This document shows, piece by piece, positions 3,803 to 40,943 of a stretch of 64,000 bases of DNA. Positions within the stretch are counted from its first letter, which is position 1, and each line of letters opens with the position of its first letter. Under the pieces are notes generated by a model. The model did not search any database, was not told the DNA's origin, and saw only the letters and a list, made by a program, of their open reading frames with translations. The stretch is taken from the NCBI GenBank assembly GCA_028688995.1, contig JAQTXB010000004.1, positions 35,636 through 99,635 on the forward strand, in the 5' to 3' direction. A program made the position numbers and the translations under genes. Origin of the DNA: Aliarcobacter sp. (GTDB lineage: Bacteria; Campylobacterota; Campylobacteria; Campylobacterales; Arcobacteraceae).

Positions 3803-3829
3803 CTTAGGTAATTTTAGAACAAAAATTAT
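3803..3829 (+). promoter_or_regulatory. Asymmetric 27-bp box upstream of hydA, followed by a -10 (TAAAAT 3840-3845)
   Basis: CTTAGGTAATTTTAGAACAAAAATTAT is 26/27 identical to the reverse complement of 39687-39713. Confidence 0.65.
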
Positions 3830-3991
3830 TTAACCACCATAAAATCATTGAATAAAATCTTTTTTATAAAAATATGAGCATAAATGCTATCTTAAAGCTA
3901 TTTTAGGGCATTTTAAATTAAGTGAATAATAAGTTTTGAATTGTTATTTTACAATAAGTAAATGAACATTCATTTTTAAGGAGTAAGAGGT

Positions 3992-5227
3992 ATGATTGAT
4001 TCGCAAGATATGGTAAAAAAAGTTTTTACCCAAAAATCAGGGAAAGTGGAAACAAATAAGGGTGAAGAGTATTATAACTCATTATTTGAAAAAGTAAAAG
4101 ACCGTTTATCAATGTTAAAAGCGCAACCAGCACTTAAAGATATTGATATGATGGATGTAATAGAGAGTGAAGGTGTAAATAGAAGAGATTTCTTAAAGTG
4201 GGTTAGTGCTACAACTGCTACACTTATGTTACCTCCTATGTTTGCTCCATTAGTTGCTGAAGCTACTGAACTTATGAATAGAGTTCCAGTTATTTGGATT
4301 GAATTACAAGATTGTGCTGGAAATTCTGAAGCACTTTTAAGAAGTTCAGCTCCAACAGTTGACGACTTATTATTTGATGTTTTAAGTTTAGAGTACCATG
4401 AAACTTTACAAGCTTGTGCTGGACATGATGCTGATAAACAATTAGAAGAAGCAGTTGAGCATTTTAAAGGTAAATATTTACTTTTTGTTGAAGGTGCAAT
4501 TCCAATGGCTATGAATGGCCAATATGGAACAATTGGTGCTATGGGTGAAACATTCCATGATCATCTTGTAAGAATGGCAAAAGATTCAGCTGCTGTTGTA
4601 GCTGTTGGAACTTGTGCTACATTTGGTGGGATTCCAGCTGCTGCTCCAAATCCAACTGGTGCTGTTGGAGTTATGGATATAGTAAAAGGTAAACCAATTA
4701 TCAATATTCCAGCATGTCCTGCAAATCCTGCAAATATGGTTGGAGTTGTTTTACATTATGTTTTAACTGGTCAAATTCCAGAACTTGATTCACTTTTAAG
4801 ACCAAAATTTGCATTTGGTTATAGAATCCATGATAATTGTGAGAGAAGAGCTCACTTTGATGCTGGTGAATTCGTAGAAGAGTGGGGAGATGAAGGGGCT
4901 AAAAACAACTTCTGTTTATATAAAGTTGGTTGTAAAGGTCCAATGACATTTAATAACTGCTCAATTATTAGATATAACGAAGGTACTAACTGGCCAATTG
5001 GTGTAGGACGAGGATGTATTGGATGTTCTGAGCCACAATTCTGGGATAAATATGCTTATGAAAGACCAATGGCAGATGCAAAAATCAAAGCACCAACTGG
5101 TGGAGTTGAAAAAACTGTAGATGAGTTTGGTTTAGGATTATTAACAGCGACAGCTATTGGTATAGGAGTTCATGCAGTGGCATCAGCAGTTGCAGGAAAA
5201 AAATCAAATGAAGGGGAAGATAAATAA
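3992..5227 (+). CDS. hydA: Membrane-bound H2-uptake [NiFe]-hydrogenase small subunit (group 1b-like), Tat-exported, C-terminal anchor
   Basis: NRRDFLKW Tat motif at residues 63-70; ELQDCAGNSE; CPANP; CERRAHF; CLYKVGCKGP; GCIGC; C-terminal TM helix. Confidence 0.95.
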   Translation: MIDSQDMVKKVFTQKSGKVETNKGEEYYNSLFEKVKDRLSMLKAQPALKDIDMMDVIESEGVNRRDFLKWVSATTATLMLPPMFAPLVAEATELMNRVPVIWIELQDCAGNSEALLRSSAPTVDDLLFDVLSLEYHETLQACAGHDADKQLEEAVEHFKGKYLLFVEGAIPMAMNGQYGTIGAMGETFHDHLVRMAKDSAAVVAVGTCATFGGIPAAAPNPTGAVGVMDIVKGKPIINIPACPANPANMVGVVLHYVLTGQIPELDSLLRPKFAFGYRIHDNCERRAHFDAGEFVEEWGDEGAKNNFCLYKVGCKGPMTFNNCSIIRYNEGTNWPIGVGRGCIGCSEPQFWDKYAYERPMADAKIKAPTGGVEKTVDEFGLGLLTATAIGIGVHAVASAVAGKKSNEGEDK

Positions 5228-6969
5228 TGGCAAATAAACACTTAGTAATTGATCCAATTACAAGAATTGAAGGACATCTTAGAATTGAAGCAATTATAGA
5301 TGAAAACAATACTGTAGTAGATGCTTATTCTTCATCAACAATGTTTAGAGGGATTGAAGAGATTTTAAAAGGAAGAGACCCAAGAGATTGTGGTCTATTA
5401 GCAATGAGAATTTGTGGAGTTTGTACAGGAACTCACTATCAAAGAAGTATTGAAGCAGTTGAACATGCGTTTAAAATTACTATTCCTAAAAATGCAAGAT
5501 TAGTAAGAAACCTTATTCAAGGTGCTTTATATGTACATGACCATATTGTTCATTTCTATCATTTACATGCACTTGACTGGGTTGATATTACAGAAGCTTT
5601 AAAAGCTGATCCAAAAGCAACAGTTGCAGAAGCTCAAAAATGGGCAGCAGTTTCAGGTCACAGACCATGGAATGCAACAGAAGATGTTTATGCACAAGTT
5701 CAAGAAAGAGTAACAAGATATGTAAAACAAGGAAGACTTGGAATCTTTGGAAACGCATATTGGGGAAGTAAAGGATTTAAACTAACTCCTGAGCAAAACT
5801 TAATTGGACTTTCTCACTATTTAGATGCTTTAGAATTACAAAGAGATTTAGCAAAAATGATGGCTATTTTTGGTGGAAAAAATCCACATCCACAATCATT
5901 TGTTGTAGGTGGAGTAACTTGTGTTCAAGATATTAAAAATCCTGCAAGAATTGCTGAATTTAAGCAAATTCTAAAAAGAGGTCAAAAATTCACTAAAGAA
6001 GCATATTTACCAGATGTTTATATGGCTGGAACAATGTATGCTGGTGAAGCATTAGAAGGAATTGGTGGTGGTTTAGGAAACTATATGTGTTATGGAGACT
6101 TTAGACTTGATGATACACCATTCTATGAAGCAGCAAAATTATTCCCATCAGGAATTGTAAAAAACAAAGATTTATCAAAAGTATTTGATATTGACCAAAC
6201 AAAAATTACAGAAGATGTTACTCATGCTTGGTATGAAGGTAATACAAATTTACATCCATTTGAAGGTGTTACTAAACCTGCATATACTGGTTTTGGTAAA
6301 AAAGAAGACAATATTGCTTATCTTGATACAACTAAAAAATATTCTTGGATTAAATCTCCATTATATGATGACGAAAGAATGGAAGTTGGACCACTAGCTA
6401 GAATGATAGTAGGTGTTGCACGTGGTGATGAGAGAATTTCTAAATATGTAACAACATTCTTAAAAAACGGAAACTTACCAACAGCTGTATTATTTTCAAC
6501 AGTTGGTAGAACTGCAGCTCGTGCAATTGAAACAGAACTTATGGTTGATGTTATGATGGAATGGGTTGATGAATTAGCTTCAAATGTAGCCCATGGAGAT
6601 TTATCAACATGGACTGAATTTAATTTTGAGAATGTTTCAAAAGAGGCTCAAGGTTATGGAATGGCTGAAGCTCCAAGAGGTGGTTTAGGACATTGGATTA
6701 AAATCAAAGATGGAAAAGTAATAAATTATCAAGCGGTAGTTCCATCAACTTGGAATGCAGCTCCAAGAGATTATAAAGGAAGAATGGGTGCTTATGAATC
6801 AGCATTAATTGGTACAAAAGTAGCAAATGTGGATCAACCACTTGAGATTTTAAGAACAATCCATAGTTTTGACCCTTGTATTGCTTGTGCTGTACATATT
6901 GTTGACACAAAAGGTAAAGAATTAGGTGTTTATAAAGTAGATCCAATTGGAGGAACAAGCCGTGCCTAA
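5227..6969 (+). CDS. hydB: [NiFe]-hydrogenase large subunit
   Basis: DPITRIEGH, L1 RICGVC, L2 DPCIACAVH followed by a cleavable C-terminal extension. Confidence 0.97.
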   Translation: MANKHLVIDPITRIEGHLRIEAIIDENNTVVDAYSSSTMFRGIEEILKGRDPRDCGLLAMRICGVCTGTHYQRSIEAVEHAFKITIPKNARLVRNLIQGALYVHDHIVHFYHLHALDWVDITEALKADPKATVAEAQKWAAVSGHRPWNATEDVYAQVQERVTRYVKQGRLGIFGNAYWGSKGFKLTPEQNLIGLSHYLDALELQRDLAKMMAIFGGKNPHPQSFVVGGVTCVQDIKNPARIAEFKQILKRGQKFTKEAYLPDVYMAGTMYAGEALEGIGGGLGNYMCYGDFRLDDTPFYEAAKLFPSGIVKNKDLSKVFDIDQTKITEDVTHAWYEGNTNLHPFEGVTKPAYTGFGKKEDNIAYLDTTKKYSWIKSPLYDDERMEVGPLARMIVGVARGDERISKYVTTFLKNGNLPTAVLFSTVGRTAARAIETELMVDVMMEWVDELASNVAHGDLSTWTEFNFENVSKEAQGYGMAEAPRGGLGHWIKIKDGKVINYQAVVPSTWNAAPRDYKGRMGAYESALIGTKVANVDQPLEILRTIHSFDPCIACAVHIVDTKGKELGVYKVDPIGGTSRA

Positions 6970-7666
6970 CATTAAAGAGGTTAAAAGAATGACAGGAACT
7001 ATGCGAATCATACATTGGGCTAATGCTATATGTATGGTAGTTGCTGTTATAACCGGTTTATATATAGGTCACCCTTATTACCAATCATTTATTGCTGATC
7101 CTGCTGTGGATAAGTATGTAATGGCATGGAATAGATGGGGGCATTTTATAGTTGCAATTATCTTTGATGTAACTGCTGTAATAATTGGTTATTTATATTT
7201 CTTTTCAAGATTTGAAAAACCATATAAAAAACTAATACCAACTATAAAAAATATAGTTGAATTTTGTGAAGTATTCTTAAATCTAATTACTTTTAATAGA
7301 AGAAAGAAATTTGATTCATCACATAGTGATAGTTATAATATTGTATTTTTCACAATATTCCATCTATTATTAATATTTATGTTATTTACTGGACTTCAAC
7401 TTTATGTTCATGGTTTAGCATCAGGTGAGAGTTCTATTGGATCTTGGTGGCCTTGGATGCTTCACTTTACAACTGATTGGACTTTAAATGTATTTGGTGG
7501 AAATATGGGTGTTAGAATTGCTCATCATACATCAATGTATTTAATTCTAGTTTGGGTAATGTGTCATATTTATTATCAAATCTGGAGAACAATCTTCTGG
7601 AAAGAGGGTGACATTGCTATTGTCATTGGCGGAAGTAAGTTTGTAAGAGAAGAAGAAAAAAAATAG
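6947..7666 (+). CDS. hydC: Hydrogenase cytochrome b subunit
   Basis: RIIHWANA, RWGHF, RIAHH His ligands in TM helices; follows hydB. Confidence 0.93.
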   Translation: MEEQAVPNIKEVKRMTGTMRIIHWANAICMVVAVITGLYIGHPYYQSFIADPAVDKYVMAWNRWGHFIVAIIFDVTAVIIGYLYFFSRFEKPYKKLIPTIKNIVEFCEVFLNLITFNRRKKFDSSHSDSYNIVFFTIFHLLLIFMLFTGLQLYVHGLASGESSIGSWWPWMLHFTTDWTLNVFGGNMGVRIAHHTSMYLILVWVMCHIYYQIWRTIFWKEGDIAIVIGGSKFVREEEKK

Positions 7667-7673
7667 AGAAAAC

Positions 7674-7693
7674 AAGGGGCGAAAGCCCCTTTT
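7674..7693 (+). terminator. Intrinsic terminator between hydC and hydD
   Basis: AAGGGGC-GAAA-GCCCCTT followed by a short T run. Confidence 0.7.
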
Positions 7694-7711
7694 CATTTAA
7701 AGGTGTAATTT

Positions 7712-8305
7712 ATGAAAAAAAGAAATATTGTAATTGGTGTTGGAAATATGCTTTTTAAAGATGAAGGTATTGGTATTTACGCTTCTGAGTATATTAGTCA
7801 AAATTACGAGTTCGATGATAAAGATTTAGAGATAATTGATGGTGGGACATTAGGGTTTAAACTAATGGCATATTTTCAAGAGTATGACAATGTTATTATT
7901 TTAGATACTGTGTCTATTGAAGATGAGATAGGAGGAATTTATAGACTTCCATCTGATGTACTTTTAGGATTAGGAAACTACAGAAAAACAGCCCATGAGG
8001 TTGAAATTGTAGAGATGTTAGAAATAGTTTCTGTTTTAGATTCTCATGCAAATGTAACAATAATAGGGATAATTCCAAAAGATATTGAAAGTGTTCAAAT
8101 AGGGCTTACAAATGAGATGGAAGATAAATTTGAAGAGTTTATTTTAAATGGTATAAAAGAGATAGAAAGTCTTGGAATTAAAGCTACAAAAGTAAATGAT
8201 ATAAAAATTAGTGATGTAGTAAAAAGCATGATAGGAAGTTATAATGGTGAACATTTAACAAGAATCCCAAATGAAGAAGATTTTACCCATGCAATTAATT
8301 TATAA
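7712..8305 (+). CDS. hydD: Hydrogenase maturation endopeptidase
   Basis: IGVGNMLFKDEGIG, IIDGGTLG, KTAHEV motifs of the HyaD/HybD family. Confidence 0.95.
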   Translation: MKKRNIVIGVGNMLFKDEGIGIYASEYISQNYEFDDKDLEIIDGGTLGFKLMAYFQEYDNVIILDTVSIEDEIGGIYRLPSDVLLGLGNYRKTAHEVEIVEMLEIVSVLDSHANVTIIGIIPKDIESVQIGLTNEMEDKFEEFILNGIKEIESLGIKATKVNDIKISDVVKSMIGSYNGEHLTRIPNEEDFTHAINL

Positions 8306-9821
8306 AATAGAATTTAACACTACAAATCTATATTTTAAACACATTATTGAAAGTTTAATAACAGAGGCTAAAATAAAAGCCACTTGCAAACAATATAATG
8401 GTTTTATACTAATTATTGTAGATGCTCTTGCTCAAGAGATAGAAGATTTTTTTGCTTTGTTAGAAAGAAAATTACCACTTAGTATTTTTATAGGTAAATC
8501 TTACGTTGTAGAAACTTATGATGAAACTTTAAAAGAAGTAGAAGATTTTGATATAAAACAGAATTTAACAATTCTTACAAATGATGTAATAAAGAATATA
8601 ATAGAAGAGAATCATATAGATTTTTTAAATGATATTGTAAAAATTACAAAAGGTGGAGTTTCAAGATTTGAAACACAAAATGGTTTAAAAGACTATTTTT
8701 TACCAAATAAAAATATTAGAGAAGATTTTGAGAATAAAGGTTTTGAGGTAAAACTATTAATTACTGATATTACAAAAGTAGAAGAAACTTTTGATATAAA
8801 TATGAAAGATTATCAACTACTTTGCTCAATTGAGAGACCTTTAGTAAAATTAAAATTTAAAATATTAAAAAATGCAAATAAAGAGTATTCATCTACAAAT
8901 TTTATTTATGCAAAAATTCCTGATGATAAACAAGTGGTTTTATTTGCAAAAGCTTTAAAAGATAATGGAATAAATCAAGTTTTATATGTTAATGATGAAG
9001 TTTATCAAGATGGATTAAAAATTACATATTTTAAAGAACAAAATCTAATTATTCATGGAGATAAAGGTTTATTTCCAAAATATGATTTTGTAGCAAACAA
9101 AAAATACAACTCTTCAAAAGATTATTTTGATGATAATGGTGGAGTTTTTAAAGCAGTTTTAGCTCAAAATGCAAAAAGATTAGTTACATCAATTGGAGTT
9201 TACTTTTCTCAAAATTCTCACAAAAGTTCAATTGCAGTGAATATCCCAACAAAGGGAATAAAAGATATTATCTCTATTCCAAATATTCACAATAGTATAA
9301 AAAATTGCTTTGAAGAGATTGCAGATATTGATGAACATTGTGCAAGATTAATTGCAAATTATTCTAAAAAATTTCCAACTGTATTAGAAGGTGATGTTCC
9401 ACAAGATACAAATGGTTTTGAGTCAATCATAAATATGTGTGCAAAAGTTTTAGGGGTAAATAGTTCAAAAGAGTTTGAAGATTTAGCTTTAAATGCAAAT
9501 TTAACAAGTGGTATTCAAATTGATATGAAACTTGTAAGTTTAGATGGAGTAAACTATTTGGACTATAGAAGAACGGTTCAATCAATAATGGCATATAAAA
9601 TGGCAGATGTTGATAATATAACTTTGATTTACTCTTTTTATGAAAGTTTGAGTGAATTTATTTGTAACTATGTAAATGAAATAGCAAATGATACAAAAAC
9701 AAATGATATTGTTTTATGTGGAAATATGTTTGCAAATTCAATTTTATTATCTAAAACAAATAAAACGCTTAGTAAAACTTATAATATCATTCTACCTAGA
9801 GAGTATCCTTTAGATTATTAA
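8271..9821 (+). CDS. hydE: HydE-type hydrogenase accessory protein (start may be 8289)
   Basis: Position after hydD as in Campylobacterota hyd operons; C-terminus IVLCGNMFANSILL resembles HypF IVLGGGVFQNRTLL. Confidence 0.75.
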   Translation: MKKILPMQLIYKIEFNTTNLYFKHIIESLITEAKIKATCKQYNGFILIIVDALAQEIEDFFALLERKLPLSIFIGKSYVVETYDETLKEVEDFDIKQNLTILTNDVIKNIIEENHIDFLNDIVKITKGGVSRFETQNGLKDYFLPNKNIREDFENKGFEVKLLITDITKVEETFDINMKDYQLLCSIERPLVKLKFKILKNANKEYSSTNFIYAKIPDDKQVVLFAKALKDNGINQVLYVNDEVYQDGLKITYFKEQNLIIHGDKGLFPKYDFVANKKYNSSKDYFDDNGGVFKAVLAQNAKRLVTSIGVYFSQNSHKSSIAVNIPTKGIKDIISIPNIHNSIKNCFEEIADIDEHCARLIANYSKKFPTVLEGDVPQDTNGFESIINMCAKVLGVNSSKEFEDLALNANLTSGIQIDMKLVSLDGVNYLDYRRTVQSIMAYKMADVDNITLIYSFYESLSEFICNYVNEIANDTKTNDIVLCGNMFANSILLSKTNKTLSKTYNIILPREYPLDY

Positions 9822-9846
9822 GAAATTCTAATTTTAGAATTTCTTA
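9819..9846. terminator. AT-rich inverted repeat after hydE (terminator or operator)
   Basis: TAAGAAATTCTAA-TT-TTAGAATTTCTTA. Confidence 0.4.
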
Positions 9847-9934
9847 ACTTTATGGATAATTTTTATCTTCTAATATTATTTTTTTAGTTTTGTTGTTGTA
9901 GTATTTAGAATAAAATTCAACTAAAGGAATTGTT

Positions 9935-10816
9935 ATGGATACAATTTTTGATAAACAAAATTTGAAAAAAGCATTAATACAACAACAAAATGAAATTAAT
10001 GATCACACTATTTATAAAATTTTAGCATCATATCAAAGTGATGAAAATAATAAAAAGATATTTGAAAAAATCTCAAAAGAGGAAAAATTCCATTATGATT
10101 TTTGGGTAAAAATCACAAAACAAGAGATAAAAGCACAAAGGTTTGTGGTTTTGTGGTTTGTATTTTTAGTGAAAGTTTTTGGAACTTCTTTTGCTTTAAA
10201 ATCTTTGGAAAAAAGAGAAGCAGGCTCTGAGGAGTTTTATAAAGAACTATTTGAAATATATCCAGAAGCTCAAAGAATTTATAAACAAGAAACCGAACAT
10301 GAGTTTGAACTCATAGAAATGTTAAATGATAAAAAGCTTTTATATGCAGGTGCAATTGTACTTGGAATGAATGATGCTTTAGTAGAGTTAACAGGAACTT
10401 TAAGTGGTATTGCTTTAGCTTTTGATAAAAGTTTAGTTGTTGGATTAACAGGTCTTATTATGGGAATAGCAGCTTCATTATCAATGGCTGGTTCTGCGTA
10501 TTTTGAAGCTAAAGAAAATCCTAGTGAAGATATAAAACCTCTTACATATTCTCTTTATACAGGAGTTTCTTATATTTTAACAACTGCACTTTTAGTAGGT
10601 CCTTTTTTTATCTTTGAAACAATGGCATATTCATTAATTATGATGTTTATTTGTGCCTTTATAGCCATTCTTTCATACAACTTTTATATAAGTGTAGCAA
10701 AAGATTTAAACTTTACAACAAGGGTTATTCAAATGTCAGCAATTACTTTTGGTGTGGCTCTAATTTCATTTGGAATAGGTTATGTTGTAAAGTTTTATTT
10801 TGGGATTGAGATATAA
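9935..10816 (+). CDS. VIT1/CCC1 family transporter with N-terminal ferritin/rubrerythrin-like domain
   Basis: EKFHY and ETEHEF ExxH motifs; AIVLGMNDALVE, GLIMGIAASLSMAGSAY VIT1 motifs; several TM helices. Confidence 0.85.
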   Translation: MDTIFDKQNLKKALIQQQNEINDHTIYKILASYQSDENNKKIFEKISKEEKFHYDFWVKITKQEIKAQRFVVLWFVFLVKVFGTSFALKSLEKREAGSEEFYKELFEIYPEAQRIYKQETEHEFELIEMLNDKKLLYAGAIVLGMNDALVELTGTLSGIALAFDKSLVVGLTGLIMGIAASLSMAGSAYFEAKENPSEDIKPLTYSLYTGVSYILTTALLVGPFFIFETMAYSLIMMFICAFIAILSYNFYISVAKDLNFTTRVIQMSAITFGVALISFGIGYVVKFYFGIEI

Positions 10817-10883
10817 ATATCTTTACTAAAGGAATAATCTTTTATAATCCAAAGCAAATATATTTATTATTCTGGAAGTTTTT

Positions 10884-13127
10884 ATGAAATCATTTTTTAT
10901 TCAAGTAAAAGGCGTTGTTCAAGGTGTTGGATTTCGTCCTTTTATTTATAATCTAGCTTTAAAATATAACATAAATGGTTGGGTTAACAATGATGATAAA
11001 GGGGTGAATATTTTAATTTATTCATCTTTAAAAAACTGCCAAAATTTTTTAGAAGAACTTCAAGAAAATCCTCCAAAACTATCTTCAATAACTGACATAA
11101 AAATAGAAGAAATAATTTCTAAAGAAGAGTATAAAACCTTTGAAATAAAGCAGAGTCAAACTTCAAATAATAAATCTACAATTATCTCACCAGATGTGGG
11201 AATTTGTGATGATTGCATCAAAGATATTAATGATATGTCTAACTTTAGATACAATTATAGTTTAACAAATTGTACAAATTGTGGTCCACGGTATTCAATA
11301 ATAAAAACTGTTCCTTATGATAGAGTAAATACTTCAATGGCATCTTTTGAATTGTGTGAAGATTGTAAAAATGAGTATGAAAATCCAACAAATAGAAGAT
11401 ACCATGCACAACCAGTTGCATGCGAAAAATGTGGTCCAAATGTAACTTTGTATAACAAAAATGATGAGATTTTATCAGTAGGTATAAAAGCCATAGAAGA
11501 AGTAGCAGAATTGATTAATGAAGGTAGTATTGTAGCTATTAAAGGAATAGGTGGTTTTCATCTTATTTGCGATGCTAAAAATAGTAAAACCATAGAAGAG
11601 CTTAGAATTAAAAAGAATCGATTAAATAAGCCTTTTGCAGTTATGTTTAAAGATATAAAGGATATTAAAAATTATACAAACTTAACATTAAAAGAAGAAG
11701 AAATTTTAACTTCAAGAAATAAGCCTATTGTTCTTGTAAAAAAAAGAGAAGATTTTAAATTATCACAACTAATAGCACCAGATATTAATCATCTTGGATG
11801 CTTTATAGCTTATACACCTTTACATTACTTGCTTTTTAGATATTTGAATAATCCAATAGTTGCAACAAGTGCAAATCTAAAGGGTGAGCCAATTATTATC
11901 TCTAAGGATGAAATTCTTGGAAAACTATCAAATATAGTTGAGTTTGTTTTAGATTATAATAGAGATATTTTAAATGCAAGTGATGATTCAGTTATACAGA
12001 TTGTTAAAAATGATATTACAAAGATTAGAAATGCAAGAGGTTATGCCCCAACGGCTTTAAATTATGAAAATAAAAGTAATAAAAAGATACTTTCCCTTGG
12101 AGCTAATCAAAAATCTACTATTACTATTTATTTTGAAAATAATTTAATTTTATCTCCATATATATCAGAGTTAAACTCTTTAAAATCAATGGAATATTTT
12201 GAGAGAACTATAAATAGTTTTAAGAGATTTTATGACTTTGAACCTGATGTTATAGTTTGTGATAAACATCCAAATTATGAATCGACAAAATTTGCTTTAA
12301 AACTAAAAGAGATAAATCCAAATATAGAGTTAATTCAAATGCAACACCATTATGCTCATATTTTATCAGTGATGGCTGAGTATAAGTTAGACAAAGAGGT
12401 ATTAGCTTTTATTTTTGATGGAACTGGATATGGTGATGATGGAAATATTTGGGGTGGAGAGGTTTTTATAGCTTCAAAAAAAGAGTACAAAAGGGTTAAT
12501 CATTTTAAATATTTTAGACTTTTAGGTGGCGAAAAAGCAGTTCTTGAGCCCAAAAGAGTAGCTTTGAGTCTACTATTTGATACTTTCTCCCTTGATGAGA
12601 TTTTAACTCTTGAAATACCATGTGTAAAAGCTTTTAAAGAGAGTGAAATAAAAATGCTTCATACAATGTGGCAAAAAGGTTTAAATTCACCATTTACAAG
12701 CTCTGTAGGGCGTTTATTTGATGCTCTTGCATCATTTGCTGATATTTTGCATATTCAAAGCTATGAGGGCGAAACAGGCTTAAAAATAGAGCAAAACTAT
12801 GACAAAATTATCACTCAAAGTTACTCTTATGAAATAATCGAAAATCAAATTGATATATCACCTATGATAAAAGAGATAGTTTTAGAAAAAGATAAAAAAC
12901 AAATTTGCTCAAAATTTATAAATACTTTAGTTCAAATTATTTTAGATATTTCAAATATTCATAAAGATTTGCCAATAGTTTTAGGTGGTGGAGTTTTTCA
13001 AAATAGAACACTTCTTGAAATTTTAATTGACAAATTTCAAGAGCAGGGTAGGGAATTTTACTTTAATAAAACTATTCCATTAAATGATGGTGGAATAAGT
13101 GTAGGGCAAATTTATCACCAAATCTAA
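10884..13127 (+). CDS. hypF: Carbamoyltransferase HypF
   Basis: GVVQGVGFRPF acylphosphatase domain; CTNCGPRYS and CEKCGP Zn fingers; DKHPNY, QHHYAH, DGTGYGDDG, LNDGGISVGQ. Confidence 0.97.
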   Translation: MKSFFIQVKGVVQGVGFRPFIYNLALKYNINGWVNNDDKGVNILIYSSLKNCQNFLEELQENPPKLSSITDIKIEEIISKEEYKTFEIKQSQTSNNKSTIISPDVGICDDCIKDINDMSNFRYNYSLTNCTNCGPRYSIIKTVPYDRVNTSMASFELCEDCKNEYENPTNRRYHAQPVACEKCGPNVTLYNKNDEILSVGIKAIEEVAELINEGSIVAIKGIGGFHLICDAKNSKTIEELRIKKNRLNKPFAVMFKDIKDIKNYTNLTLKEEEILTSRNKPIVLVKKREDFKLSQLIAPDINHLGCFIAYTPLHYLLFRYLNNPIVATSANLKGEPIIISKDEILGKLSNIVEFVLDYNRDILNASDDSVIQIVKNDITKIRNARGYAPTALNYENKSNKKILSLGANQKSTITIYFENNLILSPYISELNSLKSMEYFERTINSFKRFYDFEPDVIVCDKHPNYESTKFALKLKEINPNIELIQMQHHYAHILSVMAEYKLDKEVLAFIFDGTGYGDDGNIWGGEVFIASKKEYKRVNHFKYFRLLGGEKAVLEPKRVALSLLFDTFSLDEILTLEIPCVKAFKESEIKMLHTMWQKGLNSPFTSSVGRLFDALASFADILHIQSYEGETGLKIEQNYDKIITQSYSYEIIENQIDISPMIKEIVLEKDKKQICSKFINTLVQIILDISNIHKDLPIVLGGGVFQNRTLLEILIDKFQEQGREFYFNKTIPLNDGGISVGQIYHQI

Positions 13128-31592: not shown

Positions 31593-31606
31593 TGAATTGT
31601 TATTCA
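31593..31606. promoter_or_regulatory. TGAAT-N4-ATTCA palindrome upstream of the diguanylate cyclase
   Basis: TGAATTGTTATTCA, 46 bp before the TTG start. Confidence 0.4.
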
Positions 31607-33526: not shown

Positions 33527-33640
33527 TTAGTTTCGTTCCCAAGCTCTAGCTTGGGAATGCATACTTTTAGCAAAACAATATTTTGATTTATCTCACTTTT
33601 TTTATCTGCATTCCCAACGAAGACGTTGGGAACGAAGAAA
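33527..33640. repeat. REP doublet (REPIN-like) copy 1
   Basis: TTCGTTCCCAAGCTCTAGCTTGGGAATGCA ... TGCATTCCCAACGAAGACGTTGGGAACGAA: two 9-bp hairpins in inverted orientation. Confidence 0.9.
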
Positions 33641-33685
33641 AGTTATCGTTATCCCCTGTGACGCTAATGTTTAATGTTGTATTAT

Positions 33686-33946
33686 TCATCTTAACAATAA
33701 ATAAATTATACCTACAATTGTTAATATTATTAAAAAAAATATTGTTCCAACTTTATTTCCTATAATATCTATACGATTTAAATACAAATTCTTTTTACTG
33801 ATTTCTTTTTGACTAAAATTTTTATCTTTATTTATTTCTTTAGAATTATATTTCTCATATAAAATAAAAAATATAATAGAAACTATTATCACTGACAAAA
33901 TTATTTCAAAATTATTTATTAATATTGTTAAACCATTTACTTGCAT
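33686..33946 (-). CDS. Small two-TM membrane protein (86 aa)
   Basis: SD AAGGA; two hydrophobic segments around a Lys-rich loop. Confidence 0.7.
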   Translation of the reverse strand: MQVNGLTILINNFEIILSVIIVSIIFFILYEKYNSKEINKDKNFSQKEISKKNLYLNRIDIIGNKVGTIFFLIILTIVGIIYLLLR

Positions 33947-34005
33947 TTTTATTCCTTATCTTTTTTTGTAGTATTTTCATATAAATCTATAACACCATTT
34001 ATTGT

Positions 34006-34118
34006 TTAGTTTCGTTCCCAAGCTCTAGCTTGGGAATGCATACTTTTAGCAAAATACTATTTCAATTTGTCTTACTTTTTTATCTGCATTCCCAACGAAG
34101 ACGTTGGGAACGAAGAAA
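34006..34118. repeat. REP doublet copy 2
   Basis: Both REP hairpins identical to copy 1; internal spacer diverged from copy 1. Confidence 0.9.
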
Positions 34119-34268
34119 TGAGCTATTTTTTATAATTTTCATTTTGGAATAATATGCATTTTAATAAACTCTTGAACTCTTACATCATTATTATCTAATT
34201 GTATTTCTTTTAGAAGGTAACTTTTAAAACAATTAAACTGCCTATTTTTTCACTTCGTTTAACATTTA

Positions 34269-34565
34269 TTACTTCCCTTCAATTTTATTGTTTTGGAAGA
34301 CTTCTTTTTCTTTGTCTGTTAATGGAATAAAAAGTTTCTGATCAAATTCCTGTTTAGGCATATTTTTTAGATTTGTTGCTTCTTCATATTTATCTACTAT
34401 CCAATAAAGTGTAAAAACAACAATAAATCCAAATAATAAATTCTTTATATCTTTTTTTATTATAGAGAATACATATGATTTACTTTTTGTTTTATTATAT
34501 GATTGTATCCAAGTGTATAAATAAAAACCAATAATTAAAGACCATATAATAATTAATTTAATCAT
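34269..34565 (-). CDS. Small two-TM membrane protein (98 aa; start MIKLII)
   Basis: ATG 1 nt after the upstream stop; two hydrophobic segments. Confidence 0.65.
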   Translation of the reverse strand: MIKLIIIWSLIIGFYLYTWIQSYNKTKSKSYVFSIIKKDIKNLLFGFIVVFTLYWIVDKYEEATNLKNMPKQEFDQKLFIPLTDKEKEVFQNNKIEGK

Positions 34566-34566
34566 T

Positions 34567-34920
34567 TTATTTTTCTTCTTCGATGAAAATAAAGTTTGCA
34601 TCTTCTGTTATACCATATGTTGCACCTTGAAATTTTATATGATTCCATTGATTTTGGATATGTGCATCAATTCTAGGTTGAAGTTTATCTATTTTTGATT
34701 GTGACTTTGCATCATACGCTTCTTTTTGTAACTTCTTCCACGCTTCATTTGAATATCTAAAAGAACCCTTTGTTTTATCTAAAGCTGTGTCAAGCATTGA
34801 AGGAGCTAACACGAATCCTGTAATTCCTGACATTATTACCTCTTTTTCATTTATATTAATATCATTCCAATTTATATTATTCATATAAAAAGTTTTTTGA
34901 TTCCACATTTGTTCTGCAAC
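34567..34920 (-). CDS. Small soluble ORF: either an 88-aa protein from ATG 34833 or the 3' part of a gene truncated at REP doublet 3
   Basis: Frame stays open back to the repeat edge; SD GAGGT before MSGITG. Confidence 0.55.
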   Translation of the reverse strand, partial: VAEQMWNQKTFYMNNINWNDININEKEVIMSGITGFVLAPSMLDTALDKTKGSFRYSNEAWKKLQKEAYDAKSQSKIDKLQPRIDAHIQNQWNHIKFQGATYGITEDANFIFIEEEK

Positions 34921-35033
34921 TTAGTTTCGTTCCCAAGCTCTAGCTTGGGAATGCATACTTTTAGCAAAATACTATTTCAATTTGTCTTACTTTTTTATCT
35001 GCATTCCCAATGAGGACGATGTGAACGAAGAAA
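34921..35033. repeat. REP doublet copy 3 (right-hand REP decayed)
   Basis: Identical to copy 2 except 4 substitutions in the right hairpin. Confidence 0.9.
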
Positions 35034-35057
35034 AGTTACCTATCCTCTTTAGATAAA

Positions 35058-35094
35058 ATTATATTAAAACTGTGTCACATACGGTGTCACAGTT
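35058..35094 (-). promoter_or_regulatory. Candidate promoter pointing into the repeat array, with a tandem GTGACAC box
   Basis: Minus strand AACTGTGACACCGTATGTGACACAGTTTTAA-TATAAT then AAAGAGGA. Confidence 0.4.
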
Positions 35095-35131
35095 CTTTAC
35101 TTTTCAGAATTTCATTTGATTATTGGGGTTA

Positions 35132-35170
35132 TTATCTGGATTCCCAACAAGGACGTTGGGAACGAGGAAA
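35132..35170. repeat. Solitary REP (right half of a decayed fourth doublet)
   Basis: TTATCTGGATTCCCAACAAGGACGTTGGGAACGAGGAAA, 8-bp stem intact. Confidence 0.8.
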
Positions 35171-35357
35171 TAATTAAATTTGATTTTTAAATCATTAGTT
35201 TATTTTAGAAGTATCTTAATTTTATTTGTTACCTATTGTAAACAACGAGAGCTCAAATAGAAAATATATAAATTTACTAAATTGAGACATTTCATAAGAT
35301 ATGAATTAAAAAAATATAGTATATAAAGTTATATTATCAATTTATTTTGAATCTTAC

Positions 35358-35588
35358 ATTTTTAAAGTAGTTGAAAAAATAAGAATTTATATAGCTCAAC
35401 CATATAAATTTAGCATAATAAATGAAGATAAAGAAAATATAGATATTGAGCATCATTGTACAGCAAGTATTGGAATTTGTATGTTCAAAGGAGAAGAAGA
35501 GAGTTCTATAAATATCTTCAAATGTGCAGATTCAGCAATGTATGAATCAAAAGAATCAGGAAGAAATACTATTAAGTTTTTTGAATAA
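35358..35588 (+). pseudogene. Start-less duplicate of the diguanylate cyclase 3' end (direct repeat copy 2)
   Basis: Reads IFKVVEK...GRNTIKFFE* versus ...KFF* in the intact gene. Confidence 0.9.
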
Positions 35589-35630
35589 GTAGAAAATAAT
35601 TTTGAAATATAAAATTAAATAGAAGTTATA

Positions 35631-35659
35631 AATGGGCAAGTTTTAAAAACTTGCCCATT
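35631..35659. terminator. Inverted repeat overlapping the MCP stop codon
   Basis: AATGGGCAAGTTTT-A-AAAACTTGCCCATT. Confidence 0.7.
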
Positions 35660-37616
35660 CATCGTCATCTTTATCATTTGATGAAACTACTTTTGTTTCA
35701 CTTTTTGTATTTGTAATTGGCTTTTTAGTTTGAGTTGGAGTTTTACTTATAGTTTTTGCTGGTGCTGATTTATTCTCTAAAACTTTTGCTGTAACTTCAT
35801 CTTTTCCTATAAACTCTTTTGCATTAGCATTTGAAACAACTAATCTTGCAATTGTATCTGTTTGAACAGCTACTTCATAAGTTTGTGAAGCTATTATTGC
35901 ATTTTGTTGAGTTTGTTGATCTAGTGCGCTAATAGCATCATTTATTTGCTCAATTCCTGCTAATTGTTCTTTACTTGAACCTTCTATACTTTTTATAAGG
36001 TCAATTGTTTGTGAGATATTTTCATTTAGCATTTTGTAACCACTAATCATATCTTCTGATATTCTTTTTCCTTGGTCAGCTTTTCTTGTAGCAGTTTCAA
36101 CTAAAACTTTAATCTCTTTTGCAGCTTCTGCTGAACGAGATGCAAGATTTCTTACTTCTGCTGCAACTACTGCAAATCCTTTTCCAGCTTCTCCAGCAGT
36201 TGCAGCTTCAACAGCTGCATTTAGTGAAAGAATATTTGTTTGGAAGGCAATTTGGTCAATTACGCTAATTGCTTCATTAATTGCGTTTACTTCTCTATCA
36301 ATTTCATTCATAGCATCAGTTGTTTGATTTGCTAAATTTTCACCTTTTGAAGCTGAATCAGTTACGCTAGAAGCCAATTGAGACATTTTAACAATGTTAT
36401 TTGTGTTATTTGAAATATTGCTTGAGATTTCTTCAACAGCAGCAGCTGTTTCTTCTAAAGCAGCAGCAGCTTCATTCGAATTTCTATTTAATGTATCAAC
36501 ATTTTTTAGAAGTATATGACTACTTTCACCTAATGTTAATCCATTTGATTTATTTTCTACTAGCATATCATTTATTATATCTGCAAGATTATTTAATCCC
36601 ACAGTTACACCACTATTACACCCTTTGATTCTATGTGTAAAATCAAGACTTGCATATCTTTCAAGGGCAAAACTAATGTCATTGATATTTGTACAAACTC
36701 TTAATTGAAGACTTAATAACATATCATTAATATGATGTCTTAAACTCTCTAAACTTTGAGATTCTGTTTTATTATCAAGTCTTTTACTTAAGAATCCTTC
36801 TTTAATTGTTAAAACAATTTGATTTATCTCTTCTAGGAATTTGTTATCTGAATCAATTGCACTTTTTGATTTAGAGATATTTTGATTTACAACATGAGCC
36901 ATAGTTCCAAATTCATCATGGTTCTTATCATCTAACATTTCAACTGTTGTAGATTCTTTGTTTATATATCCAAAGAAACTTAATAAGCCATTTTGGAAGT
37001 TATTAATTGATGTTATTAATTGTGATGATAAAGCAAGTGAGAAAGCAACAAAAAATAGTATTGCAATAATTGCTAGTGTGATTAAAACAACATTCATTGT
37101 ACTAATTGCATCATCTTTCATCTTAATAGCATTACCATTTATTTGATTTAATAGTTTTTCTAACTCTAATCCAATATCAGCCATCTCTTTAATAGTAGCT
37201 AATATTTCAGGAGACTCTTTATCTATTGCATTTTTATAATCTGTTATTCTTTTTTGTGAGAATTTATCAAAACTTTGTATGTAATTCTTTGAATTTTCTA
37301 CAATTTTATTAGATAAATCAATATTTTCTTGTGCGGTTAATTTATTTTTAAAGTTTAAAACTAGATTATCTAAAGTAGAAAAATCATCTCTAACTTTTTG
37401 AGCTTTTGCTTCATCAGGAGTTCGTAAGAATTGATAAACAGAAATTCGCCCTTTTAATACCTGTTGAATAAATATATCAGTTTGGTTAGCTGCATTGGTT
37501 AAACGTTTTGTAACACCATCATAATAACTAAATATTGAAGCTGATATTATTACAATTAAAATAAAAGCCAAAGGTAAAAGCATAAGCTTTATTCGTGTAG
37601 AGACGTTTTTTAACAA
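35643..37616 (-). CDS. Methyl-accepting chemotaxis protein with C-terminal EWASF pentapeptide
   Basis: Two TM helices, periplasmic sensor, [34 protein letters not shown]; TTG start with SD AAGGA. Confidence 0.95.
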
Positions 37617-37812
37617 ATTTAATCCTTTTTTAAGAAATGATACTGAATAGTACTAATAGTAAACAAAACTTTACCTTAAATAAAAATAACTTTATATTTT
37701 AAAGAACATAACTATTTATTAGTATTTTATATATTTATATTATAAGAAATAATTAAAATAAAATTTAATAAGTTATTACAAAAGTTTGTTTTTTAGGTAC
37801 TTTAGAAAAAGA

Positions 37813-38979
37813 TTAAGAATTAATATTATTTGATTTAATAAATATTTTTGACATAATAAAAATAAGTATAACTATAAATAAAAAAACACCGATTAAAGAA
37901 AAGAAATTCTGAATATCACTCATTTCATTAATAATTGGATGAAATACTACAGGTGATAAGAATTGTCCTAGAAATATGGCAGAGGTAAAATATCCTGAGC
38001 TTTTTACTCTTTTTTCATGATTTGTTTTGCTTAACATCCAAGCTGTAACATTTGTCATCATAATTCCACCTGCAAATCCCAAAATTGGACTTGTAATGAA
38101 AAAATAGTGAACATTACTTACCAATCCAATCAAAGAAAACCCAATAGCCATTAAAAATAAACCAATTAGATATATGGTTGGAAAATTGAATTTTGTTTTT
38201 AATTTTGAAAAAGTAATTGCTCCTAAGGCATTGCAAAAAAATGCAGTTGCGATTATAGTTCCTGTTAATGAACCACTTGCTTTAAATTTTTCTATTATTA
38301 AAAAAGGAATTTGTGTTGGTAAAATAAAGAATATCAACATAAACAAAAAAGCAAGAAAATAGACAAATAAAATATTTGAACTAATATGTCCAAGTGTTTC
38401 TTGTGGATTATTTTCTATTTTTACTTCTTTAAGATTAAAAAATACCATTGGAAGTAAAATTAAACCTATTAAATAAATAGCAAAAGGAAATCTCCAACTA
38501 ATATCAGATAATAATCCTCCACCCATGACAAAAAATATACCACCAACTCCCATAAAAGCACTTTGATAACCCATAAATTTATGTCTATCTTCTTCTTTGA
38601 AATAATCTCCAACAAGTGAAGTAGAAACAATCATAAGTGTTGCAACACAAATACCAAAAAACGCTCTAGAGATTAATAAACTATCTATACTATCAAGATA
38701 TAAACCTGAACTTCCAAAAAATGAGAAGAAAAATAGTGCAATAACCGCTGATTTTTTCTTTCCAAATCTAAAAATAAAATGCCCCAAAATTGGTGCAAGA
38801 AATGCAATAACCAAAGATGGAAGTGTTAACATCAATCTTGAGTAAAATTCAATATTATTTACATCTTTAAAATAATCTTTTAAATGAGGCAACATTGTAA
38901 CAATAGCTACATTTGACATACTTGTTGTCATTGAAAGTAAAAGTAGAGTAAAAATTGTAAGTTTTGATATATTATTCAT
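37813..38979 (-). CDS. MFS transporter
   Basis: About 12 hydrophobic segments; FRFGKKK motif-A-like loop; SWRFPF. Confidence 0.88.
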   Translation of the reverse strand: MNNISKLTIFTLLLLSMTTSMSNVAIVTMLPHLKDYFKDVNNIEFYSRLMLTLPSLVIAFLAPILGHFIFRFGKKKSAVIALFFFSFFGSSGLYLDSIDSLLISRAFFGICVATLMIVSTSLVGDYFKEEDRHKFMGYQSAFMGVGGIFFVMGGGLLSDISWRFPFAIYLIGLILLPMVFFNLKEVKIENNPQETLGHISSNILFVYFLAFLFMLIFFILPTQIPFLIIEKFKASGSLTGTIIATAFFCNALGAITFSKLKTKFNFPTIYLIGLFLMAIGFSLIGLVSNVHYFFITSPILGFAGGIMMTNVTAWMLSKTNHEKRVKSSGYFTSAIFLGQFLSPVVFHPIINEMSDIQNFFSLIGVFLFIVILIFIMSKIFIKSNNINS

Positions 38980-39030
38980 TTGTGTATTGTAGTTAAGCTT
39001 ATTTAAAATAAATTAAAGTAGAAGTTTAAT

Positions 39031-39663
39031 TCAAAGATTTCTTAAAATCTCTATTTGTTCATTTTGTGAGTAATTAAATCTAAACTCTGATTCTTTTAAA
39101 TAGTAAAAAAAGTTATCTTCTTCTACACCTTTGTATTTTTTGAGATTGTTTTCTAAAAAAATCCAAAACTCATTTAACTTTGTTTTGTGAGAATTTAAAG
39201 AGTGAATTTTATTCCAGTTTAAATATTGAATAAAACCATCTTCAATATCAAAAGCTCGTTTTCCAATTTTTGGCATCAGCAAGGTATATACTTTTTCATT
39301 TGAATAAAAGCCCATAATATTTATAGCTTCACTTAGAGATTTTTTCTTTTTCTTTTTTTCTCGCTCTTTTATATAATAAAACTCTTCATATTCATTGTAA
39401 TCTTTGATTGAGCTGTTGTATTCATTTTCCAAATATAGAGCAATTTTTTTTCTAAATAAATCAAATTTCTCTTTTACCGTTTTGTAGTTTAGTTCTAATT
39501 CCTTTGAAACTTCAAGGGCATTTTTATTTTCACAAAATTTAATGATGATTAAATCATCTTTTTGAAGTTTTTTTAAAGAGTACTTTTTTGCACAAGTTTT
39601 ACATTTGATGTAATCATTTGCTAAAGTATAAAAAGTAGTGTTATTACAGTTTTGACAAATCAT
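39031..39663 (-). CDS. IS1595-family transposase-derived protein (Zn ribbon + HTH, catalytic motifs degenerate)
   Basis: CQNC...CKTC; HTH-like ALEVSKELELNYKTV; C-terminal FWIFL...YKGV...FYYYLKESEFRFN; no terminal inverted repeats seen. Confidence 0.7.
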   Translation of the reverse strand: MICQNCNNTTFYTLANDYIKCKTCAKKYSLKKLQKDDLIIIKFCENKNALEVSKELELNYKTVKEKFDLFRKKIALYLENEYNSSIKDYNEYEEFYYIKEREKKKKKKSLSEAINIMGFYSNEKVYTLLMPKIGKRAFDIEDGFIQYLNWNKIHSLNSHKTKLNEFWIFLENNLKKYKGVEEDNFFYYLKESEFRFNYSQNEQIEILRNL

Positions 39664-39686
39664 GAGCTTATTCTAACATTATTTGT

Positions 39687-39713
39687 ATAATTTTTGTTCT
39701 AAAAATACCTAAG
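39687..39713 (-). promoter_or_regulatory. Asymmetric box shared with the hydA and hypB upstream regions
   Basis: 26/27 identity to 3803-3829; the 19-bp core is identical to 40925-40943. Confidence 0.65.
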
Positions 39714-39765
39714 AGATTTGAAAAATTATGATAAGTTTATAAATTACAAAATATACTACAGCAAT

Positions 39766-39779
39766 TGAACAACTATTCA
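39766..39779. promoter_or_regulatory. Palindromic operator candidate just before the Ni-transporter SD
   Basis: TGAACAACTATTCA, followed by T and SD AAGGA. Confidence 0.5.
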
Positions 39780-39790
39780 TAAGGAATAAT

Positions 39791-40432
39791 ATGGAAAACA
39801 TAGGTTTATTACTAATCTTTTGGTATGGAATTTTACATGCTTTTGGAGCTGACCATTTAACAGCGATTGCAGATTTTTCAATAGGAAAAAACAAAAAGAA
39901 AACATTACTAATAACTGCAATGTTTGCAATAGGTCATGGTATTTCACTTTTTATATTTGCAAAGTTATTAGAAACTTATCATATTTCAGATGAGATATTG
40001 GGTTATGGTGATGTTATTTCAGCTTCTGTTATTTTAGGTATGGGAATATATTTACTTTTTTTAGTTTTTACAAATAGAATAAATTTAACAAAACATATTC
40101 ACCATGGAGAGGAACATATTCATATTTACTTTGGGAAAGAGCATTCACACTCTACAAAAGATATAAGTTCAGCTTTTACAATTGGAGCACTTATGGGAAT
40201 AGGTGGAGTTAGAGGAATGTTAGTTACTTTAGGACTTGTTGAAAGTTCAAGTGTTGATTTTACTATGGTTTTAGCTTTTACTGTTGGAGTTATGATTGTT
40301 TTTATGGCATTTGGTTCATTTATTTTATATATTAATAAAAACTTATTAACATCAAAACAAAATATTAGAAGAGTATTTACAGTTGCAGGTCTGATTTCAG
40401 TTGCTGTTGGAACTAACTTTTTACTTGCATAA
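39791..40432 (+). CDS. Nickel/cobalt transporter (HoxN/NixA/NicO-like)
   Basis: GILHAFGADHL, FAIGHG, His-rich loop KHIHHGEEHIH...EHSH; multiple TM helices. Confidence 0.85.
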   Translation: MENIGLLLIFWYGILHAFGADHLTAIADFSIGKNKKKTLLITAMFAIGHGISLFIFAKLLETYHISDEILGYGDVISASVILGMGIYLLFLVFTNRINLTKHIHHGEEHIHIYFGKEHSHSTKDISSAFTIGALMGIGGVRGMLVTLGLVESSSVDFTMVLAFTVGVMIVFMAFGSFILYINKNLLTSKQNIRRVFTVAGLISVAVGTNFLLA

Positions 40433-40520
40433 ATATTTTATTAGAAAGTTGCGGAGTAATAATTGCATATAAAGGCAGTTAAGAGAGTATACTCTACAAT
40501 AAACTAATAAAAGGCATATA

Positions 40521-40913
40521 ATGAAAATAGCAATTCCAGTAAAAGATGAGAATTTAACATTCTTTAGTAATGCAGGACATACTCCAAATTTTGCAATCTA
40601 TGATTTAACAGGTTCAGGAATGTTTAGATCATTTAAATTAGACTCAGTAATTAGAAATCCAAGAACAGATATAGACCATGACCATGCTGAGGAAGACCAT
40701 GCTTGTGACCACGGACATGATGATGAAGAACATATTGCAGAACATAATAAAATGGGTGTGGCTTTAAGTGAATGTAGTTACATTGTAGTTAAAAAAGCTT
40801 GTAAAAACACAGCAAACTCATTTACTTCACAAGGTATAAAACTTGTAAAATATAATGGTGAAGCATTAGATGTAAATGCAATATTAAAAGAGACATCAGC
40901 TTCGTTTAAATAA
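40521..40913 (+). CDS. NifB/NifX-fold protein with a His/Asp-rich insertion
   Basis: MKIAIPV...NAGHTPNFAIYD N-terminus; DIDHDHAEEDHACDHGHDDEEHIAEH. Confidence 0.75.
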   Translation: MKIAIPVKDENLTFFSNAGHTPNFAIYDLTGSGMFRSFKLDSVIRNPRTDIDHDHAEEDHACDHGHDDEEHIAEHNKMGVALSECSYIVVKKACKNTANSFTSQGIKLVKYNGEALDVNAILKETSASFK

Positions 40914-40924
40914 ACAAATAAATC

Positions 40925-40943
40925 TTGTTCTAAAAATACCTAA
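40925..40943 (+). promoter_or_regulatory. 19-bp box upstream of hypB
   Basis: TTGTTCTAAAAATACCTAA, identical to 39694-39712. Confidence 0.65.

Follow-up and report, generated by a model that had tools for sequence, protein, structure and literature searches.

The NikR regulons, among them those of Helicobacter pylori NikR and of Escherichia coli NikR-nikABCDE, are small regulons that couple nickel import with the genes of nickel enzymes, and in H. pylori the outcome of NikR control differs between targets. Uptake hydrogenases are also subject to H2-sensing control by the HupUV/HoxBC-HupT/HoxJ-HupR/HoxA systems. Arcobacter, Sulfurimonas and related Campylobacterota are major oxidizers of H2 and sulfur in vent, sediment and wastewater habitats, and include food-borne members. 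To our knowledge, the regulation of H2 oxidation and nickel supply in these organisms has not been worked out, and most of the lineages examined here lack NikR. This study concerns a 64,000-nucleotide stretch of an Aliarcobacter sp. draft genome (contig JAQTXB010000004.1, hereafter the window), in which an asymmetric box recurs in three control regions: upstream of the uptake hydrogenase genes hydABCD, between a NicO-like nickel permease gene and a divergent gene of IS1595 transposase descent (P0001), and upstream of the hydrogenase maturation genes hypBCD-EA. Comparative genomics makes it very probable that the box serves a nickel/hydrogenase regulon as a protein operator and, with less assurance, singles out P0001 as its most likely binder and regulator.

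The proposed regulon resembles those of NikR in that import and nickel-enzyme genes are coupled, that the gene for the putative regulator lies in or near the nickel/hyp cluster and that the operators occupy varied promoter positions. It differs in that no protein with a NikR_C domain is encoded here and the box is without dyad symmetry. The proteins themselves also differ: NikR combines a ribbon-helix-helix with an ACT-like domain, whereas P0001 consists of a zinc ribbon, a helix-turn-helix (HTH) and a dead DDE domain. P0001 shares homology over the HTH and DDE regions, and a zinc ribbon of the same type, with the IS1595 transposases (NF033547; Zn_ribbon_IS1595; DDE_Tnp_IS1595); unlike the corresponding insertion sequences (ISs), it is single-copy, without inverted repeats or catalytic residues, and fixed at a syntenic host locus. 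Other regulators derived from transposases are the eukaryotic FHY3/FAR1-type factors and the bacterial TnpB-derived TldR repressors. In these a mobile-element enzyme has lost catalysis and the host has kept sequence-specific DNA binding, as is predicted for P0001; the differences lie in its origin from a DDE IS1595 element rather than from Mutator or TnpB, in a mode of action that would be protein-only rather than RNA-guided, and in the metal/hydrogenase regulon that is its putative target. With the HupUV/HoxBC systems the locus shares a sensor-like group-2 hydrogenase, lacking the C-terminal extension, directly upstream of the hydA promoter, but a histidine kinase or NtrC-type regulator is absent here. 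The box is kept in 11 genus genomes without the adjacent TetR gene (the group-2 operon was not searched directly), which argues that it is not tied to that module.

The box and its footprint within the genus

A first-pass annotation, made from the letters of the window, had reported that positions 3803-3829 match the reverse complement of 39687-39713 at 26 of 27 positions and that a 19-mer, TTGTTCTAAAAATACCTAA, is identical at 39694-39712 and 40925-40943. Both statements held when re-checked on the sequence, and a minus-strand copy of the 19-mer with one mismatch lies at 3804-3822. With up to three mismatches allowed, the window yields three matches against 0.22 expected, a count that none of 100 shuffled sequences reached. 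The three 18-bp cores are designated A, B and C (Table 1), A and B being inverted relative to each other. The annotation had also proposed that many copies in unrelated contexts would mark the box as the end of a mobile element. Searching the whole 2.95-Mb draft (31 contigs, 27% G+C) returned only these three copies with at most one mismatch, none of them dispersed and all located in nickel/hydrogenase control regions. A position weight matrix (PWM) trained on 45 distinct orthologous sites of the genus scores B at 35.9, C at 34.3 and A at 29.1, the next-best site of the genome reaching 15.0. The degenerate fourth copy that had been proposed at 37793-37814 (plus strand) does not survive this analysis: it requires a 1-nt deletion, loses the invariant C of GAAC and scores below 12. 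It overlaps the 3' end of a major facilitator superfamily gene and is kept in only one of four close relatives, being conserved in neither locus L038 nor locus L091.

The core is bipartite and asymmetric, CTTA-N10-G(A/G)AC: a tract rich in T or in A separates two specific ends whose centres lie 14 bp apart. The information profile of the 45 sites gives C-TTA...T...TTTT.GAAC as the invariant letters, with two variable letters after TTA; T-T-A, T, TTTT and GAAC are invariant throughout, the C before TTA is strongly preferred, and specific positions are conserved over 18 bp. Some hydA sites have an A-tract in place of the T-tract in the middle (for example CTTATATAAAAATAGAAC), so the middle seems to need only an A/T tract, with the two ends being read specifically. 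This description departs from the earlier suggestion of tandem TTAG repeats of OmpR/PhoB type. The last letter of the first TTAG varies (T in 23 sites, G in 18, A in 4), so that the first repeat reads TTAT, TTAG or TTAA and the arrangement TTAG-N6-TTAG is kept only in some species; the boxes of distant relatives (CTTATATGTTTTTGGGAC) are without a repeated TTAG, and the two conserved ends are unlike (CTTA and GRAC). What stands of the annotation's interpretation is a genuine cis-regulatory element common to the hydA, nickel-transporter and hypB regions; what falls is the OmpR/PhoB tandem reading. Neither the sequence nor the PWM has the dyad symmetry of a NikR site, as among the four outer position pairs only TT/AA are self-complementary and C1/C18 and A4/G15 are not.

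With respect to promoters, the annotation had placed the box 10-11 nt upstream of -10 hexamers at hydA and at P0001, over the -35 region where activators bind. The geometry is correct for this genome. The TAAAAT upstream of hydA, which we infer to be the -10 element of a distal hydA promoter, follows the 27-mer by 10 nt and core A by 19 nt; TAGAAT (39675-39670) follows the 27-mer by 11 nt and core B by 20 nt; and both -10 elements are conserved in relatives. The supposed activator position is not conserved at P0001, where the box of most relatives lies only 8-10 nt before the -10: the gap is 8 nt in species with a short intergenic region and 20 nt in species with the layout of the window. In all P0001 orthologues of the genus, TGnTA(A/G)AAT is followed after 5-6 nt by the ATG, a proximity that suggests a leaderless P0001 mRNA. 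Even within this genome the box faces either way with respect to the gene downstream (hydA versus hypB and the NicO-like permease), which favours a protein operator over a promoter element or a transcribed RNA signal.

Phylogenetic footprinting, recommended by the annotation as a check, was carried out by a pattern search over 60 relatives, after which the window proteins were mapped onto the retrieved loci. In most genomes of the genus that bear a hydrogenase, the box occupies fixed syntenic positions; copies with no or one mismatch occur in many genomes, usually as two or three clustered sites. At hydA its distance to the ATG is 170-184 nt (172 nt for box A, counted from its 3' end); it is preceded by a conserved GTGTATATnnGTAACAA, points CTTA...GAAC toward the gene and is followed 18-20 nt on by a CCATAAAATC-type -10; in approximately 20 of the 25 upstream regions examined it is recognizable at the same place and in the same orientation. 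Directly upstream of the P0001 orthologues the orientation is that seen at hydA. At hypB the motif starts 89-118 nt before the ATG, genus-wide, in the opposite orientation. At least 16 genus genomes carry a further box, in the fixed hypB-type orientation, 67-77 nt before the ATG of a DUF4198-CbiM(NikM)-x-CbiQ operon. This operon, seen at L045:5457-7199 and its equivalents with the box in its upstream region, matches the NikKMLQO type of nickel importer (PMC2667541). The importer is absent from the present genome. Here the box accompanies the NicO-like permease: box B ends 77 nt before the permease gene and reads GTTC..TAAG toward it.

The comparison suggests an ancestral layout in which P0001 and hypB diverge, about 110 bp apart, from one common box. 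In the window the permease and a NifX-like gene (39791-40913) lie between P0001 and hypB, and each side has its own copy, B or C. Synonymous divergence (dS) of P0001 ranges from 0.27 to approximately 1.5 between the genomes compared, over which the 18-bp core changes by 0-2 letters. All 30 genus genomes with a complete hypB possess P0001, and the six without hypB lack it.

A search of the relatives for additional regulon members, through hits with two mismatches, yielded TTGCTCTAAAATTACCTAA (L032:6986-7004 in genome G014, and again in G031 and G007). It lies inside a 1039-amino-acid open reading frame (ORF) for a resistance-nodulation-division pump, where it encodes the peptide FLGNFRA, and was rejected as a chance match; it is a conserved coding look-alike rather than a site. 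Two further classes of site were also discarded. By inspection, the GG-N10-GC of a sigma-54 promoter is not satisfied. The HP1021/CemR box is TGTT[TA]C[TA], which fits neither TTGTTCTA nor the distant GGGAC variants. The published description of CemR gives no motif (PMC11334517).

P0001 and its homologues

P0001 begins with a Cys4 zinc ribbon (C3, C6, C21 and C24 invariant) followed by a three-helix HTH, and AlphaFold2 models both with a predicted local distance difference test (pLDDT) score of 88-95. Structural searches with Foldseek returned only weak matches, to zinc-ribbon ribosomal proteins and to HTH domains of the GerE/LuxR type, and a sequence search of the PDB was likewise weak. In a profile comparison, hhalign aligned 172 columns of the P0001 family with a multi-copy IS1595-type transposase (element length approximately 740 bp), with a probability of 98.2% and an E value of 5.4e-14. 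The homology covers the HTH and DDE regions, with a weak C-terminal match to NF033547, and the zinc ribbon is of the Zn_ribbon_IS1595 type. The catalytic triad has been lost, as vDEs is replaced by EYEEF, the hSDxWxxY segment falls within a deletion of about 27 residues and the third E is not conserved. P0001 is single-copy in this genome and essentially so in 30 relatives, one of which has an extra short C-terminal fragment. No inverted partner of the box is found at the 3' side of the gene, and no second end flanks it. Its ratio of nonsynonymous to synonymous divergence (dN/dS), 0.05-0.10, indicates purifying selection. With catalytic residues gone, a single copy, no inverted box partner and a low dN/dS, P0001 is a domesticated transposase derivative kept by the host rather than an IS, and the part kept intact is that which recognizes DNA in transposases.

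Genuine IS1595-type elements were encountered at loci L140, L147, L163 and L167. They are 733-741 bp in length, with intact DDE motifs and inverted repeats beginning GGGTCWWGACTAG, and occur in 2-4 copies per genome in metagenome-assembled genomes (MAGs) of Balneolaceae, Pyrinomonadaceae, Syntrophales and Smithellaceae. The inverted repeats of these related ISs (GGGTCWWGACTAG...) bear no clear resemblance to the box.

Outside the genus, homologues with 30-58% identity occur in Halarcobacter, Sulfurimonas, Sulfuricurvum, Sulfurovum, Sulfurospirillum, Nitratifractor and the Nautiliales. They are almost always divergent from (NicO-like-)hypBCD or, where no hyp genes are nearby, from DUF4198/CbiM importer operons. 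A related box (CTTA-N10-GRAC; TTCTTAtatNTTTTTGGGACTAA or TTCTTAGTTAnTTTTAGGAA) lies directly upstream of most of them, including those of Sulfurimonas, Sulfuricurvum, Sulfurovum, Sulfurospirillum and Halarcobacter, and usually ends 8-10 nt before a -10. The upstream regions of hydA were compared in ten other families, with the 95th percentile of shuffled sequences as the cut-off for a box. A hydA box, at -122 to -138, was present in four of five genomes with a P0001 homologue versus none of five without (one-sided Fisher p ~0.024); in these families it is inverted relative to Arcobacter. Among non-genus families with hypB, six have only a P0001-like protein, seven only NikR, one both and six neither, a weak hint of mutual replacement between the two. 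The recognition-helix residue is K or R where the box reads TAGAAC, and V, L or I where it reads GGGAC or TAGGAA; this covariation is confounded by phylogeny and is suggestive only.

Two homologues have a distinct setting. In G050 (L069:2458-3674) there is a 4-nt overlap between the P0001 homologue and the start of a gene for a hydrogenase maturation protease of the HydD/HycI type, which suggests that the two are co-translated in that lineage. In a Sulfurimonas MAG (L118:228-5097) a P0001 paralogue is divergent from a DUF4198-like/CbiM operon and is itself followed by an amidotransferase gene of the CobB/CobQ type; the box-like sequence there overlaps the start codon, downstream of the -10. 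This paralogue may represent a cobalt/B12-linked branch of the family.

Candidate readers of the box and a proposed mechanism

The box stands at orthologous positions before the linked operons and before the gene for P0001 itself. Retention of the box on that promoter, even where protein identity has fallen to 30-40%, is typical of an autoregulated local regulator, and the box persists upstream of P0001 homologues even at loci where only a nickel/cobalt importer is next door. P0001 appears to be the one protein with a DNA-binding look, and otherwise unassigned, that travels with the box. The first-pass annotation regarded the IS1595-like gene as one more target; comparison between genomes suggests instead that it encodes the likely binder, and we consider this role fairly probable for P0001. 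Two other candidates were rejected. The TetR-family protein encoded upstream of the group-2 hydrogenase is missing from 11 genus genomes that keep P0001 and the boxes at hydA and hypB. The NikR_C domain (PF08753) is absent from this genome and all 36 genus relatives, in a search that was positive in eight other families and in control genomes.

Regulon evidence by itself does not name the binder, and the box could be the operator of another transcription factor encoded elsewhere, either of OmpR/PhoB type or an atypical response regulator, with P0001 as a mere member of the regulon and perhaps a nickel/hydrogenase accessory protein. We judge this unlikely. The asymmetry of the box, often a property of response-regulator sites, would suit it, as would the weak fold evidence for the HTH of P0001 and the overlap of the G050 homologue with a HydD-like protease gene. 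These points are set against a TTAG direct repeat that is not conserved, a scan of 30 window ORFs with Pfam and NCBIfam (about half of the ORFs listed for the window) in which no response regulator, OmpR-type or otherwise, was found, the persistence of the box before P0001 homologues of 30-40% identity, the tracking of P0001 presence by hydA boxes across families and the homology of the P0001 N-terminus with the DNA-binding part of transposases. Far less probable is a promoter element read by RNA polymerase, for instance the -35 or upstream element of an alternative sigma factor of the extracytoplasmic function (ECF) type. It would account for the 19-20 nt between the box and a conserved -10 at hydA and P0001 in this genome and for the GAAC of the box, which resembles ECF -35 motifs, but is difficult to reconcile with the use of both orientations (within one genome, and between families at hydA), with a distance to the -10 that ranges from 8 to 20 nt at P0001 and with 18 bp of conserved specific positions, more than a -35 element. 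We give marginally less credence still to the boxes being relics of a mobile element, either IS1595 terminal repeats or a miniature inverted-repeat transposable element, with no regulatory role. The transposase descent of the adjacent gene and the mutual inversion of A and B are what such relics might leave; but there are only three genomic copies, none dispersed in unrelated contexts, no second end flanks P0001, the IS1595-type inverted repeats show no clear likeness to the box, and the box is kept at orthologous intergenic sites across species with saturated synonymous sites and across families.

Several findings weigh against P0001 as a regulator acting through the box. Its HTH fold matches are not significant (E 2-4), and an accessory function in maturation would likewise be compatible with the overlap with the protease gene in G050. 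Within the genus, P0001 and the box occur together in a manner inseparable from the presence of the hyp cluster, and the cross-family test of the hydA box covers only 10 genomes. A sigma-70 consensus scan of this AT-rich DNA found promoter-like sites to be no commoner than expected by chance. The spacing from box to -10 at the P0001 promoter differs by 12 nt between lineages, so that no single geometry of activation or repression holds. Finally, G058 carries both NikR and a P0001 homologue, and P0001 is therefore not simply a NikR substitute.

In the mechanism that we propose, the box would be the operator of a small dedicated nickel/hydrogenase regulon comprising three control regions in this genome (hydABCD, the divergent P0001/NicO-like permease pair and the hypBCD-EA maturation operon) and, in relatives, also the NikKMLQO-like nickel importer (DUF4198-CbiM) of the energy-coupling factor class. 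P0001, as a dimer or via two DNA-binding modules, would span a bendable A/T tract and make contact with both CTTA and GRAC. Since the box overlaps or abuts its own promoter, P0001 is probably autoregulated, and it may activate or repress depending on the position of the box. From predicted transcription starts, the core is estimated to be centred near -41 at hydA and P0001 here, typical for an activator contacting RNA polymerase. In the ancestral divergent layout its centre would be near -31, with some 8-11 nt between the box and either -10 element, a position that may be repressive or MerR-like, and at hypB and the nickel importers it lies 70-100 nt upstream of the start codon. Such differing positions make different outcomes at different targets plausible. 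As to the signal, nickel availability or a cue linked to the hydrogenase is probable; all conserved targets either handle nickel or are nickel enzymes, which makes nickel itself the simplest assumption. The palindrome described below would be an independent second input.

Neighbouring features and biological meaning

The coordinates of the boxes, promoter elements and genes are collected in Table 1. Box A sits in the 255-bp gap between the group-2 hydrogenase operon and hydABC-hydD, box B in the 127-bp region between P0001 and the NicO-like permease, and box C between a 130-amino-acid NifX-like gene and hypB. Orthologues of the permease precede hypB in other families.

Table 1. Sites and genes of the window that bear on the box (positions within the window)
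Feature	Position	Strand	Remarks
TetR-family gene	902-1495 (frame 899-1495)		Upstream of group-2 hydrogenase operon
Group-2-type [NiFe] hydrogenase small subunit	1485-2378		
Group-2-type [NiFe] hydrogenase large subunit	2381-3736		Ends ...CSVCTTH, without C-terminal extension
Box A core CTTAGGTAATTTTAGAAC	3803..3820	+	Between group-2 hydrogenase large subunit and hydA; 27-mer of the first-pass annotation runs to 3829
Candidate -10 TAAAAT, distal hydA promoter	3840..3845	+	CCATAAAATC and variants 18-20 nt after GAAC, genus-wide
hydA-hydB-hydC-hydD (protease) + HypF-C-like gene	3992..9821	+	Membrane-bound uptake [NiFe] hydrogenase operon (Pfam); putative regulon member
P0001, 210 amino acids	39031..39663	-	Cys4 zinc ribbon, HTH, degenerate IS1595-type DDE domain; candidate box-binding regulator
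Extended -10 TGTTAGAAT of P0001 promoter	39670..39678	-	20 nt after box core, 6 nt before ATG
Box B core CTTAGGTATTTTTAGAAC	39696..39713	-	27-mer at 39687-39713; divergent P0001/NicO-like permease intergenic region
NicO/NiCoT-like nickel permease, 213 amino acids	39791..40432	+	HX4DH motif; weak NicO and TIGR00802 matches
Box C core, plus strand GTTCTAAAAATACCTAAC	40927..40944	-	Ends 98 nt upstream of hypB ATG
hypB-hypC-hypD-mazG-like-hypE-hypA operon	41043..45114	+	Pfam and NCBIfam matches; putative regulon member

No ATG, GTG or TTG start of the TetR-family gene covers its HTH; the frame opens past the stop at 896-898. The likely start of the gene is the ATT at 902, 6 nt after AAGGA, and the gene overlaps that of the group-2 small subunit by 11 nt. 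Homologues occur in 21 genus genomes and in several other families, mostly within a few kb of hydA.

The annotation had noted that a palindrome, TGAAYN4RTTCA, accompanies the box in all three regions, and this proved correct (at 3737, 39766 and 40997). It has 15 matches genome-wide, and was noted in the window at 3737-3750, 3961-3975, 31593-31606, 39766-39779 and 40997-41010. In other families too, including some without P0001, the palindrome is found just before the hydA ribosome-binding site. The hydA-proximal copy appears degraded in Arcobacter species that lack TetR, and the palindrome could therefore be a TetR operator rather than a metal-regulator site. Two further elements are conserved near the boxes. 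Between box C and hypB, TTTAGACTTTTTGAGTTAAACT (40964-40985) is kept across much of the genus; it contains TTTAGAC, similar to the TTTAGAAC end of the box, and could serve as an additional half-site or belong to the hypB promoter. Some 30 nt before box A, GTGTATATAAGTAACAA (3758-3774) occurs genus-wide before hydA, including in species without a group-2 hydrogenase.

Our literature search found no description of a regulator derived from a DDE/IS1595 transposase, of this box or of a NikR replacement of the kind proposed here. A broader proposal, which we advance tentatively and at somewhat less than even confidence, is that the P0001 family comprises transcription factors derived from DDE (IS1595) transposases that serve as nickel/hydrogenase-responsive master regulators of nickel import, hydrogenase maturation and uptake hydrogenase across the Arcobacteraceae, Sulfurimonadaceae, Sulfurovaceae and Sulfurospirillaceae, largely in lineages without NikR. 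The operators of such a family may descend from the ends of the ancestral element, and the remnant of the acidic DDE pocket may now act as a metal sensor. The analysis provides a testable operator, CTTA-N10-GRAC, a predicted regulon (hydABCD, hypBCDEA, a NicO-like or NikKMLQO-like importer and P0001) and one candidate regulator. Should P0001 prove to bind the box, it would represent a clear example, among prokaryotes, of a metabolic transcription factor that arose by domestication of a DDE transposase, and likely a non-orthologous replacement of NikR.

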